Of a DNA stretch of 31,226 bases, positions 1,422 to 16,629 are shown piece by piece. Below the pieces are notes generated by a model. That model ran no database searches and was not told the origin of the DNA. It saw only the letters and a program-made list of their open reading frames with translations. Position numbers and translations under genes: made by a program. Source of the stretch: a virus (taxonomy: Duplodnaviria > Heunggongvirae > Uroviricota > Caudoviricetes); IMG/VR virus record IMGVR_UViG_2541047916_000004; one strand, written 5' to 3'. Each line of letters starts with the position of its first letter. Within the stretch, counting starts at the first letter, position 1.

Positions 1422-3893
1422 TTAAAAATCAGCCTGACTCGGGATCAGTTTTTGCCAGATAACTGAAACGTATTTTGCCTGGTAACGGGCGTCATCAAGT
1501 GCATTATGGCGCTCACCTTCGAATGGAATAGCCGTTCTGGCATCGAAGTCTATGGCTTTCCCCAGCTCAACGATTGTGCGTACATCGCGATCGTTGTAGT
1601 AACGCCACGGGCAGGGGATCCCCTGCCGTTCGTATGAACGGCGCAAAATCGTGTTGTCGAAGTTGGCTCCATTTCCCCAAACCTGAACAAAAAATTCACC
1701 GGAGTTTTCGTCGATAAATTCCCGCAATTGTAACAGTGCATCATCTAACGGGATTTCATCGGTCATAATGGCAGATTGCGCTTCGCGTGATTGCTTAAGC
1801 CACCATTTAATGGTGTCCCGATCAATGACTCCGCCAGCAGTTTCCAGATCGATAGTCTTACTAAATTCCGGTCCCATATCTCCGGTTTGCGGATCGAAAA
1901 ATATTGCACCTATTGAGATGATCGGGGCATCAGGATTTTTTCCCATGGTTTCAAGGTCGATCATTAGATGGTCACACGTCCTGCTGGTGGATGTGATTTC
2001 GTGATGACCGTTCACCTTAATTGAGCGATCTGCCGTCTCGCCAGTTTCATTATCGCTATCGTGATGCTGATTGCCGCCAGTGTTCTCCTTGTGTGGATGT
2101 TCAGCGCCTTCCATTTCCTCCGGATCATCTTCCTGAACTTCAACCTGATACTCTTCATCGAATGTTTCCTGGTATGTTGCGTCGCCCATCACCGCGCCAC
2201 AATCAGGGCAGTTGCCGCCGCCGGTCTGACCGCAGGCGGTGCAGACTTTTTCCACTTCCTGTTGCGCCACTGGTTCAGGCTGTTTCGTTTCTGGCTCGTT
2301 TTGTAACGCATTTGGGCTGTTTTGTTCCGCTTTTTGGTAGTTCCGTTCCGATTCATGCTGGTTCTGGTTCACAGAATCGCGGGTCTGGATCCCCTTAACC
2401 CATTTCGGATCATTCGGGTCACTAATCCCTTCAACAAATTCACCACGTGATGCAGCAAGCAACTTATCGGCGTCAGGCTGGCTGATATTGGCTGCCTGCA
2501 TAATTTTGTTTACTTCGTCAGCGGTAACTTTTATCGGCTCTGGTTGTTCTGAATCTTCAGCGGTATCTACATTTTGCGGTAAGCCCGTGTATGTGCCATT
2601 TTTTCGGGCAAAATATTCTTCTTTTGTGATTTCAGTGGCGCCAGCAGCCAGTGCCTTATCCAGACCAGAAAGTTTGTTTGCGCGACCGCATTTTTCTCCG
2701 TCCTTATCTGCGAAGAGGAAATAGAACGGCCCCTCACGCTCTACAGATGGTTCAGCTTCCGGCGCGGTTTCATTTTTTGGGATATCAGATACCTCAGTTT
2801 CCACTGCATCAGTTTGTGTTTCTGATGACTGGAGAACATCAACAGTGCCCAGGTCTGTTTCTTCATTCTCAAACACGCCCTTTGTCGTCAGGTATTCGCA
2901 GATATATTTGTTCAGTGCTATGGGATCTTTGTGAATGTCGATCGGACGCTCACGGACAAGGCCAAAAATAGTTTGGCGGTCGTAGCGAAGGGCATCAGGC
3001 TGTTTGCGCATTGATGCCGAGATACGCTTCCAGTCTTCGCGGTCGTTGTCGATAACTTCATTTTTTGCCCAGCGATGGATGCTGCCGTCAATGTTTCCGG
3101 CATCCACATCACCAGGCCAGAGAGCGTAGGCCAGTTCGTCATCCAGTGTTTTCCATGTCTGCTTGTATTCGCGATGAATGGCAGCAATGACCGGGCTGAT
3201 TTTTCCTGTTGAATTTTCACTGTGCTGTTGATTGGTTCTGGCGCGGGCGAGATCAATAACAGACGTGTATTTTCCGGTTTCCTTACGTTCACCTTCGCGA
3301 CGTTTTTTCCAGATGCGCATCTCTGCCTGAATTTCGGGCCATTTGGCACCAGGCTTACATTTATGCTTAACCCACCCGATGGCATGCAGCTTAAGCTCCG
3401 GATACATGGCGTTAACTTCTGGCATTTTCATCAACGCTTCAACGATATGTCCGTCGAATGTTGCCATGTCTTCCTGCAACAATTCCTGTGCGCTAATAAC
3501 CATATCAACGGTGATGTTTTCACATGTGTCGAACTTAACCATGACAGCGTTCTGTACTTCAGGGGCCAGCTTGTCAAAAGTGACGTTCATCGGATCGGAT
3601 TCAGTCTCAACCGGGACAAAGGAAGCAGACTCCTCATCCCAGCGGTTTTCCTGCATATATTCAGCATCCCAGGAATCGAGGGCAGGGCGGGGTATGCCGG
3701 GTTTATCCTCACAGACAATAAATTTATAAGCGCAGTCCTGAGCTGCAGGGAATTGCTCCAGAAATTGCCAATGAAATTTTGCGCGTGCGCGACGCTCATC
3801 ACCAGCTTCAATGGCAGTGGCCACCGCAACAGCGCTATCTTCTTTTATGGCCTGTTCATCAGGAATAGCAGCGCAAATAAAGACCTTACTCAT
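1422..3893 (-). CDS. Large phage exonuclease with C-terminal DnaQ-like DEDDh 3'-5' exonuclease domain
   Basis: 823-aa ORF; C-terminal 200 aa carry Exo I (MIDLETMG), Exo II (VWGNGANFDNT) and Exo III (HNALDDARYQ) motifs; acidic N-terminal region contains a CTACG...CPDCG zinc-ribbon-like motif. Confidence 0.75.
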   Translation of the reverse strand: MSKVFICAAIPDEQAIKEDSAVAVATAIEAGDERRARAKFHWQFLEQFPAAQDCAYKFIVCEDKPGIPRPALDSWDAEYMQENRWDEESASFVPVETESDPMNVTFDKLAPEVQNAVMVKFDTCENITVDMVISAQELLQEDMATFDGHIVEALMKMPEVNAMYPELKLHAIGWVKHKCKPGAKWPEIQAEMRIWKKRREGERKETGKYTSVIDLARARTNQQHSENSTGKISPVIAAIHREYKQTWKTLDDELAYALWPGDVDAGNIDGSIHRWAKNEVIDNDREDWKRISASMRKQPDALRYDRQTIFGLVRERPIDIHKDPIALNKYICEYLTTKGVFENEETDLGTVDVLQSSETQTDAVETEVSDIPKNETAPEAEPSVEREGPFYFLFADKDGEKCGRANKLSGLDKALAAGATEITKEEYFARKNGTYTGLPQNVDTAEDSEQPEPIKVTADEVNKIMQAANISQPDADKLLAASRGEFVEGISDPNDPKWVKGIQTRDSVNQNQHESERNYQKAEQNSPNALQNEPETKQPEPVAQQEVEKVCTACGQTGGGNCPDCGAVMGDATYQETFDEEYQVEVQEDDPEEMEGAEHPHKENTGGNQHHDSDNETGETADRSIKVNGHHEITSTSRTCDHLMIDLETMGKNPDAPIISIGAIFFDPQTGDMGPEFSKTIDLETAGGVIDRDTIKWWLKQSREAQSAIMTDEIPLDDALLQLREFIDENSGEFFVQVWGNGANFDNTILRRSYERQGIPCPWRYYNDRDVRTIVELGKAIDFDARTAIPFEGERHNALDDARYQAKYVSVIWQKLIPSQADF

Positions 3894-3988: not shown

Positions 3989-4177
3989 TTATCCAGCCGG
4001 TGTTTCGTTATTCAGGTACAGCGATACTTTTTTTAGCGGGAGGCATTCACCAGAAATTTTTTGCTCGTCTCTTGCCTGGAGGCAGGATTCTTTACTTGCA
4101 TAAATTCCGGTAATCACATTCTGTGATTCACCCGTTATAAGAAAAACCGTCATCATCAGTGCAAATGCTGAAGTCAT
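3989..4177 (-). CDS. Hypothetical small protein with N-terminal hydrophobic signal/TM segment
   Basis: 62-aa ORF in an AT-rich stretch; start ATG overlaps stop of the upstream 62-aa ORF (ATGA), suggesting translational coupling; N-terminus MTSAFALMMTVFLITG is hydrophobic. Confidence 0.45.
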   Translation of the reverse strand: MTSAFALMMTVFLITGESQNVITGIYASKESCLQARDEQKISGECLPLKKVSLYLNNETPAG

Positions 4178-4362
4178 TGACGTTCTCCGAAAATACCAAG
4201 TTCAAGAAGAGCAATTCGGGAAAGTATGGAATTATCATTGAGCAGATAAGGCTCATATTTCCTCATATTAATGGCATCTTCAGTAAACTCCCGGTTACTG
4301 AGCAGAACACCAATATCAAAACAACCTTCAGACGTATTAACGTTTGGTAATAACGTTTCCAT
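4174..4362 (-). CDS. Hypothetical small protein
   Basis: 62-aa ORF, AT-rich, coupled by ATGA overlap to the downstream ORF; no recognisable motif. Confidence 0.45.
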   Translation of the reverse strand: METLLPNVNTSEGCFDIGVLLSNREFTEDAINMRKYEPYLLNDNSILSRIALLELGIFGERQ

Positions 4363-4933
4363 TATCGCGTCCTCAACAATGAATTTTGTGATGCAGTGCC
4401 TGGTGCCTCCAGGTGACGTTAACCAGTTAACAATTAACTCCGGGTTAGTTGATGCTCGTTACGCCCGTAAAATACCGCCTTACTGCTTTAACTGTTCCGC
4501 GTGCGCATAGCCGCATTCACCGCATCACAAAATTCACTTTAAAAAGGGCGGCAGAGCAGTCACGGAGTAAAACTGATACCGCCAAATGTCACCAGAAAAT
4601 TGATAACAGAGGGCGTTGTAGCGGGGTTGTCACTTAAGCGTATGGTCAACCTGACAACCCGGTGCATTTTCTGGAGCAATGGAGGAAACCCCAGCCATAC
4701 TTACCGCCGCGCCATTTCGCGGAGTGCCACAACCGGAAGCGCACGGTCGAACTAAATTTAACGACACCGTACAGAGAGACCAATTTCGCCGTGCGCTTTC
4801 GCGTTATGCCCTGACTTTTCAGGGACATATCCTTTCAGTAAGCTGTCAGTGCCGGATGCTCACCCGTGTCCGGCGCACGCACTCCACCTGACCCGTGGAG
4901 AACTCCTTAATTACCAACCCTCAGGAGGGTGAA

Positions 4934-5212
4934 ATGGATAAAAAGCAAATTGAGGCCCTGCAATCTATTATTGAAGAACAAGATGAAGCTATCAGGATTC
5001 TTTCATATCGCACTGATATGATACTAAATATGCTTTCTGCATTAACGGCTGCGCTTGGTGGTACAAAAACAAACGTATACCGCGAAGTTGTTATTCAACA
5101 GATAGATAAATTTGAAAAAACCATACCAGGTATTAATGCTCATCTTGCAGAACAAGAGAAAGACCATGCTCTTATGGCAATTTCTTCAGTAGCTCTCCCG
5201 AAAGTTGAGTAG
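4934..5212 (+). CDS. Hypothetical protein, predicted coiled coil
   Basis: ATG preceded by GGAGGG Shine-Dalgarno 6 nt upstream; 92 aa (MDKKQIEALQSIIEEQDEAIRIL...); AT-rich codon usage distinct from neighbours; opposite orientation to the surrounding leftward operon. Confidence 0.5.
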   Translation: MDKKQIEALQSIIEEQDEAIRILSYRTDMILNMLSALTAALGGTKTNVYREVVIQQIDKFEKTIPGINAHLAEQEKDHALMAISSVALPKVE

Positions 5213-5585
5213 TTTTAATTGTTGTTTTGAAATAATCACTGCTTTCACATTTGAGTGATTTCATGGCAATCCAAATGCGGGCCTCTGTGCCTGCATTTGG
5301 TTCCAGTTGCTGTAGACGTTTTGCGTCTTCCAAAAGTAAGGCGATAATGTGTTTCAGCTTCTCATCATTTGCTTGATTCTTGTTTTCAGGCGAATTCTGT
5401 CCGCCGAATAGGCGCTTCTCTTCATACAGACCTATAAAGGCACGACGCACGTTACCGGATATAGTATCGATGGTTTCCTTTTCTACGGTACTCAGGTCAA
5501 GAGTCGCCAGTTGAGAGCGAACCACATTCGATGCCATTTCCTGGAATGGTACTGGTAAATCTTTAAATTCCATCGTCAACCTCAT
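5172..5585 (-). CDS. Hypothetical protein
   Basis: 137-aa ORF; start overlaps stop of upstream 77-aa ORF by 1 nt (TGATG); 3' end overlaps the convergent + strand ORF by 41 bp. Confidence 0.5.
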   Translation of the reverse strand: MRLTMEFKDLPVPFQEMASNVVRSQLATLDLSTVEKETIDTISGNVRRAFIGLYEEKRLFGGQNSPENKNQANDEKLKHIIALLLEDAKRLQQLEPNAGTEARIWIAMKSLKCESSDYFKTTIKTTQLSGELLKKLP

Positions 5586-5818
5586 CAGTCAGTGTTTCTG
5601 GTTAACCAGCGACGCGCGCCAGCTTCAGTTTTAAACGTTTTGCTTCTGGTATACGTCATCGCGGTGAACGTACCGTCCTGGTTGGGGAACACGCCACATA
5701 CCAGAGATTCGCTGTTGCCAAGATCGATAGTATCCATGCTGACCTCATTTCCCCTTAACGCCGGGGTAGCGGAACAAAAACCTGCTGCATAGTTATTAAA
5801 GTTGAACCCTGCCGTCAT
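5585..5818 (-). CDS. Hypothetical protein
   Basis: 77-aa ORF, first gene leftward of the repressor and its downstream operator-like palindromes. Confidence 0.5.
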   Translation of the reverse strand: MTAGFNFNNYAAGFCSATPALRGNEVSMDTIDLGNSESLVCGVFPNQDGTFTAMTYTRSKTFKTEAGARRWLTRNTD

Positions 5819-5923
5819 GTTCTTACGCCTCGGGCTGGCTACTTAACCCCTGACCACTGCCTGGTAACTCGAAGTATTGCCCTGCATTCTGTGGGGCGGG
5901 GTGGGTTGGTATGAAAAGAAGGA

Positions 5924-5960
5924 TACCCATAGGTATTTAAAAAGTAAATACCCATGGGTA
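5924..5960. promoter_or_regulatory. OL-like operator cluster: two TACC-N4-GGTA palindromes
   Basis: TACCCATAGGTA (5924-5935) and TACCCATGGGTA (5949-5960) downstream of the repressor gene and upstream of the leftward genes; same consensus as the sites in the divergent region at 6443-6493. Confidence 0.45.
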
Positions 5961-6002: not shown

Positions 6003-6422
6003 CTATGATGCGTTTTGTGCTTTCTTTTTACGGATTTCTTCGTAGATCATATTGTAATACTGTTTTTTCTCTTCAAGAGTTTTTAATAATTTATCCGCTT
6101 CACTTTCTGGCAGTTCGTCTAAGAGATCTAAAAAAATACGTTGTCGTGGCGTTAGAACCCTTGTTTCATAACTGGAGGCTGTGTTCGTTGATGATGAAAC
6201 GATACCATCCATCCATCCCCGGGGTAACCCAAAGGACTCTTCGATAATCTCCACCATATCATCAGCGATCCGTTTTTTTCCCTTTTTCCCCTCTGGGTAC
6301 AACATTCTTGATACATAAGAAGGCTCGCGCCCGATCTTTCTGGCCACGTTAACCGCTTTACCATCGCATTTCTCATCACGAATTTTGATGAGTTGCTGTC
6401 GTCTAAATTCATATTTGTCCAT
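6003..6422 (-). CDS. Putative CI-like prophage repressor (HTH)
   Basis: 139-aa ORF divergent from a Cro-like gene; segment AVNVARKIGREPSYVSRML resembles an HTH; flanked on both sides by palindromic operator-like sites. Confidence 0.6.
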   Translation of the reverse strand: MDKYEFRRQQLIKIRDEKCDGKAVNVARKIGREPSYVSRMLYPEGKKGKKRIADDMVEIIEESFGLPRGWMDGIVSSSTNTASSYETRVLTPRQRIFLDLLDELPESEADKLLKTLEEKKQYYNMIYEEIRKKKAQNAS

Positions 6423-6442: not shown

Positions 6443-6497
6443 TACCGCAAGGTAAACAACCTGTGGGTATTGACTTTTGTTTACCTGTGGGTATTCT
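6443..6497. promoter_or_regulatory. OR-like operator/promoter region
   Basis: TACCGCAAGGTA (6443-6454), partial AACCTGTGGGTA (6459-6470) and TACCTGTGGGTA (6482-6493); candidate rightward promoter TTGACT (6470-6475), 16-nt spacer, TATTCT (6492-6497), ahead of the Cro-like gene at 6523. Confidence 0.5.
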
Positions 6498-6522: not shown

Positions 6523-6804
6523 ATGGAAGAATTAAGAATATTTCTCAATTCTCTTTCGTCAGATGAACAGCGTATGTTTGCATGCGAGTGTGGTACCAGC
6601 ATCGGTTATCTAAGAAAGGCATTGAGTAAAGGTCAAGTGTTAGGGGCATCGTTATGTGTCCTTATTGAGCGAGCCAGTAATGGTGAAGTTACACGTCAGC
6701 AACTAAGGCCTTTTGATTGGATGAATATTTGGCCCGAGCTGGAAGATACCAAAACGTTAACACAACCACTTTCTAGGAGCTTGATTCATGAAAATCAAGC
6801 ATGA
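6523..6804 (+). CDS. Cro-like HTH regulator (YdaS-like)
   Basis: 93-aa ORF divergent from the repressor; MFACECGTSIGYLRKALSKGQ is HTH-like; first gene of the rightward operon; resembles the Rac-type ydaS architecture. Confidence 0.65.
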   Translation: MEELRIFLNSLSSDEQRMFACECGTSIGYLRKALSKGQVLGASLCVLIERASNGEVTRQQLRPFDWMNIWPELEDTKTLTQPLSRSLIHENQA

Positions 6805-10337: not shown

Positions 10338-11024
10338 ATGACCCCAATAAAAATATTTATGACTATTGCTGATTTCAAACGGCCTAAATTGGAGCTCCCA
10401 AACGGGGCAAACAAACTACTACTGCACTCTTGCTGTGCTCCATGTTCCGGTGAAGTGATGGAGGCGCTTCAGGCCTCGGGAATCGACTACACCATCTTTT
10501 TCTACAACCCGAACATTCATCCTCAGAAAGAGTATTTAATTCGTAAGGATGAAAATATTCGCTTTGCTGAACAACACGGCGTGCCGTTTATCGATGCTGA
10601 TTACGACACCGACAACTGGTTTGAACGTGCCAAAGGAATGGAATGGGAGCCTGAGAGGGGGATCCGTTGTACCATGTGTTTTGACATGCGTTTTGAGCGG
10701 ACAGCGTTGTACGCTGCTGAAAATGGTTTCAGTGTGATCAGCAGTTCACTGGGCATTTCACGCTGGAAAAATATGCAGCAGGTTAACGAGTGTGGGCGGC
10801 GAGCTGTTGCGCATTATCCGGGTATGGTGTACTGGGATTATAACTGGCGCAAGCAGGGCGGCTCGTCCCGTATGATTGAAATCAGCAAGCGCGAAAAATT
10901 CTATCAGCAGGAATATTGTGGCTGTGTGTATTCTCTGCGCGATACCAATCTACACCGCAAATCTCAGGGACGCCCTCTTATCAAAATTGGCCAACTCCAC
11001 TACGGAAAAGAAGAGAAGGAGTGA
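10338..11024 (+). CDS. queH: QueH-like (DUF208) putative epoxyqueuosine reductase
   Basis: 228-aa ORF with N-terminal [11 protein letters not shown] and C-terminal YCGCVYS cysteine motifs characteristic of QueH/DUF208 Fe-S proteins; assigned from motif recollection, not a search. Confidence 0.7.
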
Positions 11025-11261
11025 TTTTATGGATCACCTTTCTGATTGATTTCATATTGGCGAGGTGACGTGAGTTAAGTAGAATGGCTGCGGGTGCTTG
11101 AGGCTATCTGTCTCAGGCATGAACACTGAAAGGCAGATAGAGAAAAGCCCCAGTTAACATTTCGCGTCCTGCAAGACGCTTAACATTAATCTGAGGCCCA
11201 ATCTATGTCTCACAAATGTAGGTTAGCCTCTTACGTGCCGAAAGGCAAGGGGAAGCAGGCT

Positions 11262-11417
11262 ATGAAGCAGCAAAAGGCGATGTTAATCGCCCTGATCGTC
11301 ATCTGTTTAACCGTCATAGTGACGGCACTGGTAACGAGGAAAGACCTCTGCGAGGTACGACTCCGAACCGGCCAGACGGAGGTCGCTGTCTTCACAGCTT
11401 ACGAACCTGAGGAGTAA
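11262..11417 (+). CDS. hok: Hok/Gef family type I toxin
   Basis: 51-aa peptide MKQQKAMLIALIVICLTVIVTALVTRKDLCEVRLRTGQTEVAVFTAYEPEE, near-identical to Hok/RelF-family toxins; the longer in-frame ORF from 11205 is probably an artefactual extension. Confidence 0.85.
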   Translation: MKQQKAMLIALIVICLTVIVTALVTRKDLCEVRLRTGQTEVAVFTAYEPEE

Positions 11418-15627: not shown

Positions 15628-15703
15628 GGCCCTTTAGCTCAGTGGTGAGAGCGAGCGACTCATAATCGCCAGGTCGCTGGTTCAAATCCAGCAAGGGCCA
15701 CCA
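15628..15703 (+). tRNA. tRNA-Ile2-like (anticodon CAU; ileX/ileZ-type)
   Basis: 76 nt cloverleaf: acceptor GGCCCTT/AAGGGCC, D-arm AGCTCAGTGGTGAGAGC, anticodon loop CTCATAA, T-loop TTCAAAT, ACCA tail; closely resembles E. coli ileX. Confidence 0.85.
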
Positions 15704-15710
15704 TCACATA

Positions 15711-15787
15711 CCGCCATTAGCTCATCAGGAAAGAGCGCCAGCTTTCGAAGCTGGTTGCGCGGAGTTCGGGTCCCCGAAGGCGGTCCA
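15711..15787 (+). tRNA. tRNA-Arg(UCG)-like, possibly degenerate
   Basis: D-arm GCTC...GAGC and anticodon stem-loop CCAGC-TTTCGAA-GCTGG are clean; acceptor stem has one mismatch and the T-arm is non-canonical (loop TTCGGGT, mismatched stem). Confidence 0.45.
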
Positions 15788-15800
15788 TTATCTGTATCCT

Positions 15801-15877
15801 GCGTTGTTAGCTCAGCCGGACAGAGCAATTGCCTTCTAAGCAATCGGTCACTGGTTCGAATCCAGTACAACGCGCCA
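15801..15877 (+). tRNA. tRNA-Arg (anticodon UCU)
   Basis: 77 nt: acceptor GCGTTGT/ACAACGC, D-arm GCTC...GAGC, anticodon stem-loop ATTGC-CTTCTAA-GCAAT, T-arm ACTGG-TTCGAAT-CCAGT, GCCA tail. Confidence 0.85.
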
Positions 15878-15920: not shown

Positions 15921-16142
15921 TCTCACAATTCAGGCGGTTGACTGTTGTCTGGTTTGCGGGGAGTTTGTTAAAAGAAACTGGCATGGTGAATCCCCCTGTG
16001 CGGAGGGGCAATCAGCGAGTAGGTATATGGGATAATCGCGGATTCAGGTGCTGGTACTGAATTCACCGGGAGGCACCCGGCACCATGCAATGGCACATAG
16101 CGCCACTCTCCAGCCCCTCTCCGGAGGGGCTTTTCTGTGCCG
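15921..16142 (+). repeat. Copy A of a tandem paralogous hairpin-rich element (candidate sRNA unit)
   Basis: Shares with copy B the blocks CTCACAATTCAG..GTTGAC, GCATGGTGAATCCCCCTG(T/A)GCGGAGGGGC, GGTATA..ATAATC, TGAA(T/C)TCACCGGGAGGCACCCGGCACCATG and AGCCCCTCTCCGGAGGGGCTTT (terminator-like hairpin plus T-run); sequence between blocks differs. Confidence 0.45.
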
Positions 16143-16390: not shown

Positions 16391-16625
16391 TCACAATTCA
16401 GTAAGTTGACAGTTGCCTGTCAGACTGGGCATTTGTTAAAAAAATTTCGCATGGTGAATCCCCCTGAGCGGAGGGGCGACTGGTGACGGTATAATCTCTG
16501 ATTATCAAAACGAGAATGACGCGGGTTTAGTGGCACCGGGTTGAACTCACCGGGAGGCACCCGGCACCATGTGCATGATGATACAGATACGCGGCTTTAG
16601 CCCCTCTCCGGAGGGGCTTTCTTAT
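16391..16625 (+). repeat. Copy B of the tandem paralogous element (candidate sRNA unit)
   Basis: Same conserved blocks as copy A in the same order, including a perfect TATAAT (GGTATAATC) and the terminal GCCCCTC-TCCG-GAGGGGC hairpin followed by TTTCTT. Confidence 0.45.
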
Positions 16626-16629
16626 GGAC

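Follow-up and report, generated by a model that had tools for sequence, protein, structure and literature searches.

In phage lambda the rexAB genes lie between cI and OL, and the cis-antisense RNAs of lambdoid phages are made from a constitutive promoter. The lambda SieB open reading frame (ORF; 34482-35036, plus strand; Pfam SieB, 103 bits) abuts N (35037-35438, minus strand) just left of PL/OL, and in the Rac-like phage vB_EcoS-666R9 a plus-strand sieB gene lies between kil and a DUF1391 gene, overlapping the latter by 4 nt. Accessory genes typically lie antisense to lytic operons (PMC7067206), and the P2/P4 hotspots are accessory and defence gene slots of temperate phages (PMC9122126). The dicBF operon, whose DicF RNA and DicB protein are toxic upon induction, has also been described (PMC5069750). 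Here we analyse a locus combining features of these systems, at positions 4934-5818 of a 31,226-nt stretch of DNA (the window) from virus record IMGVR_UViG_2541047916_000004, immediately left of the prophage repressor gene.

The block contains three ORFs, at 4934-5212 (plus strand, 92 aa), 5172-5585 (minus strand, 137 aa) and 5585-5818 (minus strand, 77 aa). It is 100% identical to the chromosome of Escherichia coli strain AR_0013, where the prophage sits beside ompW. An earlier note on this DNA had listed these ORFs and read them as one acquired module. On the comparisons described below, the block instead comprises parts of two transcription units that oppose each other, in the early-left arm of a lambdoid prophage of Qin/dicBF type at ompW. 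The account that we favour as a whole, with moderate confidence, sets a PL-driven early operon on the minus strand against a self-contained accessory gene on the plus strand, which has a shared leader and belongs to a set of exchangeable cargo genes. The minus-strand part is an operon of known kind with two genes replaced; the part that appears to be new is the shared promoter and leader with an exchangeable or absent ORF.

The plus-strand gene and its leader

The 92-aa plus-strand ORF (4934-5212; cargo family A, PHROG 18692) is truly coding. Comparison with Salmonella prophage homologues (71-81% identity) gave a ratio of non-synonymous to synonymous substitution rates (dN/dS) of 0.08-0.25 at dS 0.67-0.89, and purifying selection was also seen in the part overlapped by no other gene; the ORF is therefore real, with homologues down to 40% identity. 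The strong ribosome-binding site reported previously was found as AGGAGG at 4923-4928, 5 nt 5′ of the ATG at 4934. The gene is rare: it occurs in 127 of 5,426 complete E. coli genomes, a tblastn search of 50,697 sequenced phage genomes found none, and a full HMMER scan of 1.84 billion proteins yielded only 15 relatives, again reaching down to 40% identity. A k-mer-seeded search returned 22, and all relatives from both searches are unnamed.

The protein is acidic, with a grand average of hydropathy of -0.10 and no membrane segment. It had been described as a coiled coil, but AlphaFold gives a three-helix bundle with no obvious long coiled coil (predicted local distance difference test, pLDDT, 78). 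Foldseek searches of the PDB and BFVD with this model, and a PDB search with the sequence, returned nothing significant. No family in Pfam, PADLOC or NCBIfam matched the protein above threshold. Pfam was silent at E <= 0.1, the SieB model (PF14163) included; true SieB proteins score 103-108 bits with that model.

Homologues of the gene were found in several contexts. In Salmonella it occupies the same slot, facing a 71-aa partner that it likewise overlaps by 41 bp, and in another locus (L011) it faces an unrelated 214-aa partner, again with a 41-bp overlap. Elsewhere it lies directly beside a LexA-type repressor gene and has its own hairpin-plus-T-run terminator (L012), lies beside an integrase gene (L013/14), or survives as a truncated remnant (L008). 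These contexts indicate that the gene moves independently of its neighbours. With a GC content of 37.3% against a window mean of 51.6%, and exchangeable as described below, the plus-strand gene bears out the earlier suggestion of acquired cargo. It is probably a moron in a known slot.

Some 85 nt 5′ of the gene are conserved even in E. coli K-12, which lacks the gene itself. The top position weight matrix (PWM) match upstream is a predicted σ70 promoter at 4816-4844 on the plus strand (-35 TTTTCA at 4816-4821, 17-nt spacer, -10 TAAGCT at 4839-4844), from which transcription is predicted to start near 4851, at the first of three hairpins. These hairpins make up a leader of about 83 nt following the conserved -10 element. 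Hairpin 1 (H1; GCCGGAUGCUCACCCGUGUCCGGC, 4851-4874, plus strand) is nearly invariant, loop included, in the 139 loci described below; seven of its nine pairs never vary, the scan pattern itself having fixed most of the H1 sequence. Hairpin 2 (H2; CUCCAC-cugaccc-GUGGAG, 4882-4900, plus strand) follows, and in other loci its stem is built from unrelated complementary sequences, GACCACACG/CGUGUUGGUC and UUCCCAAC/GUUGGGAA. In hairpin 3 (H3; 4903-4928, plus strand) an anti-Shine-Dalgarno sequence, CUCCU at 4903-4907, pairs with AGGAG at 4923-4927 of the Shine-Dalgarno (SD) sequence. A compensatory change is seen here too, CUCCU/AGGAG being replaced by CUCCAUU/AAUGGAG in other loci.

Pairs were counted on 23 distinct leaders. 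In H2, pair 35-51 is AU in 11 leaders, UA in nine and CG in one; in H3, pair 59-80 is AU in 15 and UA in eight, and pair 61-78 is UA in 11 and AU in eight. Double changes thus occur in both H2 and H3. Pairing was found in 88.9% of cells, compared with 30-44% when the partners were slid, and the covariation score of 0.145 (0.041 for shuffled leaders) was reached by none of 500 shuffles. Only as plus-strand RNA can the U.G and G.U wobbles of H1 form pairs, and the same holds for single U.G changes in H2. The leader matches no Rfam family, and on its covariation support we regard this SD-sequestering element as a candidate RNA family. The possibility that it is an antiterminator RNA like put of phage HK022 was rejected: the HK022 PL-nun interval looked dissimilar in an informal comparison by eye, there was no Rfam match, and the opposite strand is indicated.

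To survey the element, the H1 anchor CCGGATNCNNANCNGTGTCCGGCGCA was scanned over IMG/VR and a species-genome collection, which together with loci already fetched gave 139 loci. These are confined to Escherichia, Shigella and Salmonella and are largely redundant Escherichia prophages. The collection with one genome per species contributed only seven H1 loci, nearly all from Escherichia or Shigella, so that the element is narrowly distributed. A -10-like hexamer (TAAACT, TAAGCT, GATAAT, TATTAT or TAAAAT, some with a TG extension) stands 5-11 nt, mostly 7 nt, before CCGGAT in all but one of the 139 loci, and is kept even where the upstream DNA is non-homologous.

An SD sequence and start codon are present at a fixed distance past the element in 63 of the 139 loci. 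The ORFs behind them encode 37 distinct proteins of 57-105 aa, belonging to at least 10 unrelated families. PHROGs 18692, 4987, 4274, 10133, 8894, 7249, 10348 and 20080 are among these families, all annotated as of unknown function. One family, of 91 aa, is a distant relative of the 92-aa protein (28% identity). In STEC (Shiga toxin-producing E. coli) PPompW prophages, which share the ompW insertion site, the same leader precedes a different cargo gene. The exchange is most simply read as the swap of a segment of roughly 4937-5413 between two homology arms, the leader on the left and, on the right, the conserved N-terminal module of the facing minus-strand gene, in which matches begin at 5414. 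In the literature searched we found no description of a shared promoter and three-hairpin, SD-sequestering leader serving many unrelated small ORFs and kept in K-12-type prophages where no ORF follows it.

Two of the cargo families are marginally GhoS-like. GhoS is a type V antitoxin endoribonuclease. The proteins concerned, of 94-101 aa and encoded in the same slot (3241-3522 of phage pAEv1818, L018, and families E/J in L070/L104), score 21.2 bits with Pfam GhoS against a cut-off of 21. Separately, a 42-nt copy of the H1 element (88% identical) was noticed at 2501-2542 of the Stx2a phage P13374 (L149), from the O104:H4 outbreak strain, and in related Stx phages. Its surroundings there are not of dicBF type, its neighbours being an ead/Ea22-like and a hypothetical gene.

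This pattern of exchange bears on whether the 92-aa protein could be a regulatory or lytic-cycle factor of the phage, acting in the lysis-lysogeny switch or on the host at induction, with its antisense placement merely timing expression. In each of four element contexts the gene lies near the immunity region; small, acidic bundles of helices are typical of protein-binding modulators; and an SD-sequestering hairpin implies conditional translation. A core role is nonetheless unlikely for a gene that is absent from the 50,697 phage genomes searched and gives way freely to unrelated ORFs or to no ORF at all, and accessory loci typically run counter to the lytic operon, as this gene does (PMC7067206). 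We consider a regulatory role of this kind improbable.

The minus-strand early-left operon

The sequence ACCYRTGGGTA has five matches in the window, against 0.06 expected, and these occur only at 5924-5960 and, on the PR side, at 6459-6493, so that the repressor gene has operator sets on both sides. The first group falls in a PL/OL-like region on the minus strand (5920-5960; -35 TTTACT at 5948-5943, 17-nt spacer, -10 TATCCT at 5925-5920; PWM score 8.6), in which the motif scan placed two operators, at 5924-5934 and 5949-5960. The layouts of PR (TTGACT-16-TATTCT) and PL (TTTACT-17-TATCCT) follow the same design, each being bracketed by two operator copies. Between the repressor stop at 6003 and the operators at 5924-5960 there is a gap of 3 nt to about 40 nt with no ORF. 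The interval corresponding to rexAB is therefore empty, contrary to the rexAB-equivalent position that had been proposed for the block.

The first two genes after the PL-like promoter are ydfA and a gene for a 133-aa protein, upstream of DicF, dicB and the exonuclease gene. By position they are early lytic genes, expected to be silent in the lysogen because they lie directly downstream of the operator-covered PL. Their position matches that of lambda N, unlike that of rexAB. They had previously been taken for cargo expressed in the lysogen, which does not fit promoter-proximal genes of a repressed early-left operon of the ydfABC-dicF-dicB type (PMC5069750).

The first gene of the operon encodes a 50-aa ydfA homologue with a DUF1391 domain (5585-5737, minus strand; Pfam PF07151, 93 bits; 91% DNA identity to K-12 ydfA), as called in RefSeq. 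The 77-aa ORF extending to 5818 is probably an over-extended version of this gene, and the 137-aa ORF starting at 5585 probably an over-extended version of the 133-aa gene (5172-5573, minus strand). The RefSeq starts are at ATG 5737 and ATG 5573, and GAGG is present 5-6 nt 5′ of both these internal ATGs. DUF1391 spans only residues 29-75 of the 77-aa ORF, K-12 ydfA has no in-frame ATG upstream of its start, and homologues of the second protein begin MEFKDLP. With the 50-aa and 133-aa starts, the 1-nt overlap that had been described between the two genes turns into an 11-nt spacer.

The ydfA gene belongs to the backbone. Its GC content is 50%, and ydfA-like DNA was found in 4,220 of the 5,426 complete E. 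coli genomes. A search for remote relatives of its product returned only a head decoration protein, at chance level (E = 0.37, PDB 1td0). The label 'head-DNA stabilization protein D' attached to ydfA/DUF1391 genes in ON470583, ON470614 and other phage records is probably a mis-annotation arising from such a chance-level similarity. The 38 nt 5′ of the ydfA start (5775-5738, minus strand; TCCGCTACCCCGGCGTTAAGGGGAAATGAGGTCAGC) are conserved between the window and K-12 despite otherwise different PL leaders, and this stretch includes a small hairpin, CCCC...GGGG, beside the ribosome site.

The 133-aa protein is a mosaic of a conserved N-terminal module of about 55 aa, beginning MEFKDLP, and a LKHIIALLLEDAKRLQQLEPNAGTEARIWIA module. 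The N-terminal module is found with at least 10 different C-terminal parts. The LKHIIALLLEDAKRLQQLEPNAGTEARIWIA module occurs alone in Cronobacter phage phiES15, phage pAEv1818 and Shigella Stx phage 75/02, encoded by the first or second gene after the repressor gene. All 259 homologues of the 133-aa protein are unnamed, there was no PDB match, and its AlphaFold model, at pLDDT 59, was too poor for a fold search. Structure prediction, which the earlier note had proposed as a check, thus yielded nothing informative about function. An analogy between the LKHIIALLLED module and CIII was considered and dropped: the resemblance to lambda CIII is loose, there was no Pfam match, and the comparison with HK022 CIII was unconvincing.

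As stated earlier, no N-like antiterminator is recognisable. The three block proteins match none in Pfam, PHROG or NCBIfam, with nut sites not searched for systematically, and the minus-strand proteins are not basic (pI 6.1 and 6.6). Neither Pfam nor PADLOC detected RexA or RexB in the block. PADLOC-DB matched none of the three block proteins or of nine other cargo or partner types, the best E-values of 0.014-0.055 being spurious. The only toxin-antitoxin domain found in the block proteins was a sub-threshold RelB-like match (15.6 bits against a cut-off of 50).

These data bear directly on the reading of all three ORFs as a single acquired exclusion or abortive-infection module, expressed in the lysogen from a rexAB/sieB-like position. 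The segment 4920-5605 has a GC content of 40.8%, compared with the window mean of 51.6%, which ranks it among the lowest 0.6% of windows of that size; the block adjoins the immunity region, its plus-strand gene is in a sieB-like slot, and all three proteins lack a known function. The low GC content holds for 4920-5605 but not for ydfA, and the contrast is weakened by neighbours that are equally AT-rich (repressor gene 40.7%, cro 41.1%, dicB region 39.8%). BLAST against K-12 Qin gave 86% identity from dicB to 4919 and 91% over 5606-5775 (ydfA), with nothing between. The plus-strand gene does behave as swappable low-GC cargo. The ydfA gene is conserved backbone, present in K-12 Qin and Rac-type phages, and 4920-5605 takes the place of ydfB/ydfC. 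The three genes do not travel together: ydfA, the 92-aa gene and the 133-aa type occur in separate combinations and recombine independently. Together with the operator-covered PL in front of the minus-strand genes, the empty rexAB position and the lack of any match to a defence family, this leaves a single module highly improbable; synteny largely refutes it, in favour of two opposed units. The link to a known exclusion or abortive-infection family likewise found no support in PADLOC, Pfam, NCBIfam, the PDB or Foldseek.

Convergence of the two units

The 92-aa and 137/133-aa genes overlap 3′-to-3′ by 41 bp, at 5172-5212, exactly as first reported, and the final 13 codons of the 133-aa gene are antisense to the 3′ end of the cargo gene. 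The 41-bp overlap recurs in the Salmonella loci and in a 45%-identical homologue, and in nearly all loci the 3′ ends of cargo and partner abut or overlap by 0-71 nt. Cargo homology between loci stops exactly at the cargo stop codon. An incoming minus-strand gene must therefore end in cargo antisense, within 8, 13 or 24 codons depending on the frame. The overlap was considered as a designed regulatory feature, and this was rejected as unproven, since a homology ending at the cargo stop codon forces an overlap. The earlier suggestion that this arrangement allows antisense interference is plausible in itself.

A closer relation would exist if the 133-aa protein, through its variable C-terminal part, were the cognate partner of the 92-aa protein, the two forming an effector with its escape or immunity factor like sieB/esc, or a toxin-antitoxin-like couple, whose expression is coupled by the overlap. 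Exclusive links between cargo families and C-terminal types are in keeping with this (B with T3 in 7 of 8 loci, C with T1 in 11 of 11, D with T4/T9 in 5 of 5 and G with T6 in 2 of 2), as are the abutting or overlapping 3′ ends and the persistence of the 41-bp overlap of family A down to 45% identity. A precedent in this slot is P22 sieB/esc with the sas antisense RNA (PMC7067206). Linkage between two homology arms would, however, yield the same association, and, there being only three frames, a 41-bp overlap that recurs in two or three lineages carries no significance. The partner type in the window, T2, is also found with cargo families E, F′ and I and with a disrupted cargo gene, and its module is encoded by an early-left gene in phages lacking the 92-aa gene. 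Family A, for its part, faces the unrelated 214-aa partner in L011 and has no partner in L008, L012 and L013/14. A sieB/esc-like relation between the two proteins is not needed to explain the data and seems to us unlikely.

On the two-unit account, the repressor of the lysogen would silence PL while the plus-strand promoter fires, giving leader RNA and cargo protein; we infer that this promoter is active, and it is position that leads us to expect expression in the lysogen. H3 would temper translation, so that a modest amount of cargo protein is made to the benefit of the lysogen. Judged by position, the most likely role of the cargo would be interference with incoming phages. When PL is derepressed, convergent transcription and a full-length, perfectly complementary antisense RNA would switch the cargo off. 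Conversely, plus-strand transcription may dampen leaky PL read-through toward the toxic dicF and dicB.

Several findings weigh against this account. The PWM score of the plus-strand promoter, 6.2, is ordinary, the mean best score per 336 nt being 6.4, and no published transcript, start site or protein record for this promoter was found in the literature. No intrinsic terminator was found 3′ of 5212 in the window; in another locus (L090) cargo family I is followed by a clear hairpin-plus-T-run terminator. The support that G.U pairs give to the plus strand is limited, one outer H1 pair favouring the other strand. Locus counts do not represent independent events, because the loci are largely redundant Escherichia prophages. 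No known defence, exclusion or toxin family was matched among the cargo families or partners, and position is the sole argument for an exclusion role, because there is no family match and fold searches were uninformative. Finally, no ORF is present behind the element in 76 of the 139 loci, K-12 Qin included, and its retention there suggests that the RNA may matter more than the protein.

The ORF-less loci speak for a different emphasis, in which promoter and leader act mainly as RNA: a cis-antisense or interference guard that stops or destabilises leaky PL transcripts before dicF/dicB (or kil), the ORFs being passengers. This partly overlaps the two-unit account. The -10 hexamer, H1 and H2 are kept in these loci, with TAAACT at the same distance in 68 of 75 of them; the invariance of H1, loop included, is that of a specifically recognised RNA or DNA element; and the unit faces PL and sits upstream of DicF in the PL direction, in an operon whose DicF and DicB are toxic when induced (PMC5069750). 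The cargo ORFs, on the other hand, are under selection and have well-placed SD sequences, which argues that the proteins matter too, and the cargo-less loci show no sign of a short RNA terminated after H2. In K-12-type Qin (L002, about 2520-2600) TAAACT, H1 and H2 are kept opposite the 3′ end of ydfC, with no ORF. Their retention leads us to predict that the dicBF operon of K-12 has an antisense RNA as yet unannotated; the supplement of one K-12 small-RNA survey has no such RNA, nor an entry for a plus-strand start opposite ydfC at the predicted coordinates. A role mainly as RNA is a serious alternative that we rate below the two-unit account.

More speculatively, lambdoid prophages related to the dicBF, Rac and Stx types may use promoter and leader as a dedicated 'expression dock' in their sieB slot, through which lysogens rotate tiny anti-phage or superinfection-exclusion proteins, the 92-aa protein among them, with the prophage's own PL transcript providing antisense self-immunity on induction. 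We put this forward tentatively. If true, well-studied E. coli prophages, K-12 Qin among them, would turn out to hold a new regulatory RNA family and a new hotspot of miniature defence genes. The early-left arm by the immunity region is among the most studied parts of lambdoid phages, and K-12 Qin carries part of the element. With an active promoter and leader, the dicBF operon would have a further, so far unrecognised antisense transcript, and there would be a hotspot swapping at least 10 families of 57-105-aa proteins behind one leader. Genes of such size escape defence-island searches, and the shared leader offers a simple handle for finding more of them. Even if the proteins are unrelated to defence, the conserved SD-sequestering leader would still be a candidate new RNA family.

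Surrounding genes and comparison with known systems

Leftward from the immunity region the order is a cro-like and a YdaT-like gene, the repressor gene, the block, an untranslated stretch, DicF, dicB, a DUF1482/YdfD-like gene and an exonuclease gene. The cro-like gene, of YdaS type, lies at 6523-6804 (plus strand), with the YdaT-like gene beside it. The 139-aa repressor (6003-6422, minus strand) belongs to PHROG 5736, 'transcriptional regulator'. Its C-terminal 50 residues are DicA-like (NCBIfam E = 1.9e-5, below the family cut-off) and no Pfam helix-turn-helix model matched it; it appears to be a DicA-like protein whose DNA-binding N-terminus differs and which has an operator of its own, ACCYRTGGGTA. 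Beyond the block, the untranslated part of the early-left operon runs from the cassette to DicF (4598-4850, minus strand; 86% identity to K-12 Qin). It is followed on the same strand by the DicF small RNA (4546-4597; Rfam RF00039, 77 bits), dicB (4174-4362; Pfam DicB, 125 bits) and the DUF1482/YdfD-like gene (3989-4177; Pfam DUF1482, 54 bits). The exonuclease encoded past the YdfD-like gene has 823 aa.

Other features of the window were noted in passing. The dicB-DicF interval (4385-4534, minus strand) gave a weak STnc100 match of 27.5 bits, below the gathering score of 47. Two full STnc100 copies are present at 15952-16142 and 16420-16629, with three tRNA genes just 5′ of them (15628-15874, plus strand); this part of the prophage is presumably its late-regulatory region. 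At 11092-11267 on the plus strand Rfam finds a sok antisense RNA (120 bits), which marks a hok/sok-type toxin-antitoxin locus, in which RefSeq annotates hokD. Near the replication region, at about 10360-11025 on the plus strand (11460-12125 of L001), RefSeq annotates epoxyqueuosine reductase QueH, an unusual cargo.

Compared with the dicBF region of K-12 Qin (dicA, ydfA-ydfB-ydfC-dicF-dicB-ydfD), the order and strands are the same from the repressor through the exonuclease. The repressor N-terminus and the operators differ, and in place of ydfB/ydfC, to which it has no similarity, the segment 4920-5605 here holds the 133-aa gene and, on the opposite strand, the 92-aa gene. K-12 has the predicted plus-strand promoter, H1 and H2, but no ORF behind them.

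Comparison with lambda and vB_EcoS-666R9 places the 92-aa gene, and only this gene of the block, in the sieB-equivalent slot that had been suggested for it. Like sieB of lambda, P22 and Rac, it opposes the early-left operon and is convergent with the gene or genes nearest PL, and it has in common with sieB a low-GC accessory character and a potential for antisense control. The 3′-end overlap is 0 nt for lambda sieB/N, 4 nt for Rac-like sieB/DUF1391 and 41 nt here. The encoded protein is not SieB by these comparisons: it has no sequence or fold relation to SieB and no membrane segment. The three-hairpin leader is absent from Rac-like sieB.

With moron and defence hotspots the locus shares a variable slot between conserved flanks, alternative unrelated genes, deviant composition, and presence or absence among close relatives. 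The cargo differs from that of P2/P4-type hotspots in being very small (single genes of 57-105 aa), with none matching a known defence system. Here, moreover, one conserved promoter and structured leader supply the ribosome-binding site for all the cargo genes, and the slot lies antisense within an early lytic operon.

The predicted leader RNA resembles, finally, the cis-antisense RNAs of lambdoid phages (lambda OOP, opposing cII, and P22 sar and sas) as a short structured transcript opposing an early lytic transcript near the immunity region. It matches no Rfam family and would differ from these RNAs in carrying an ORF in about half of the loci, and in having as its target the early-left operon upstream of dicF/dicB.

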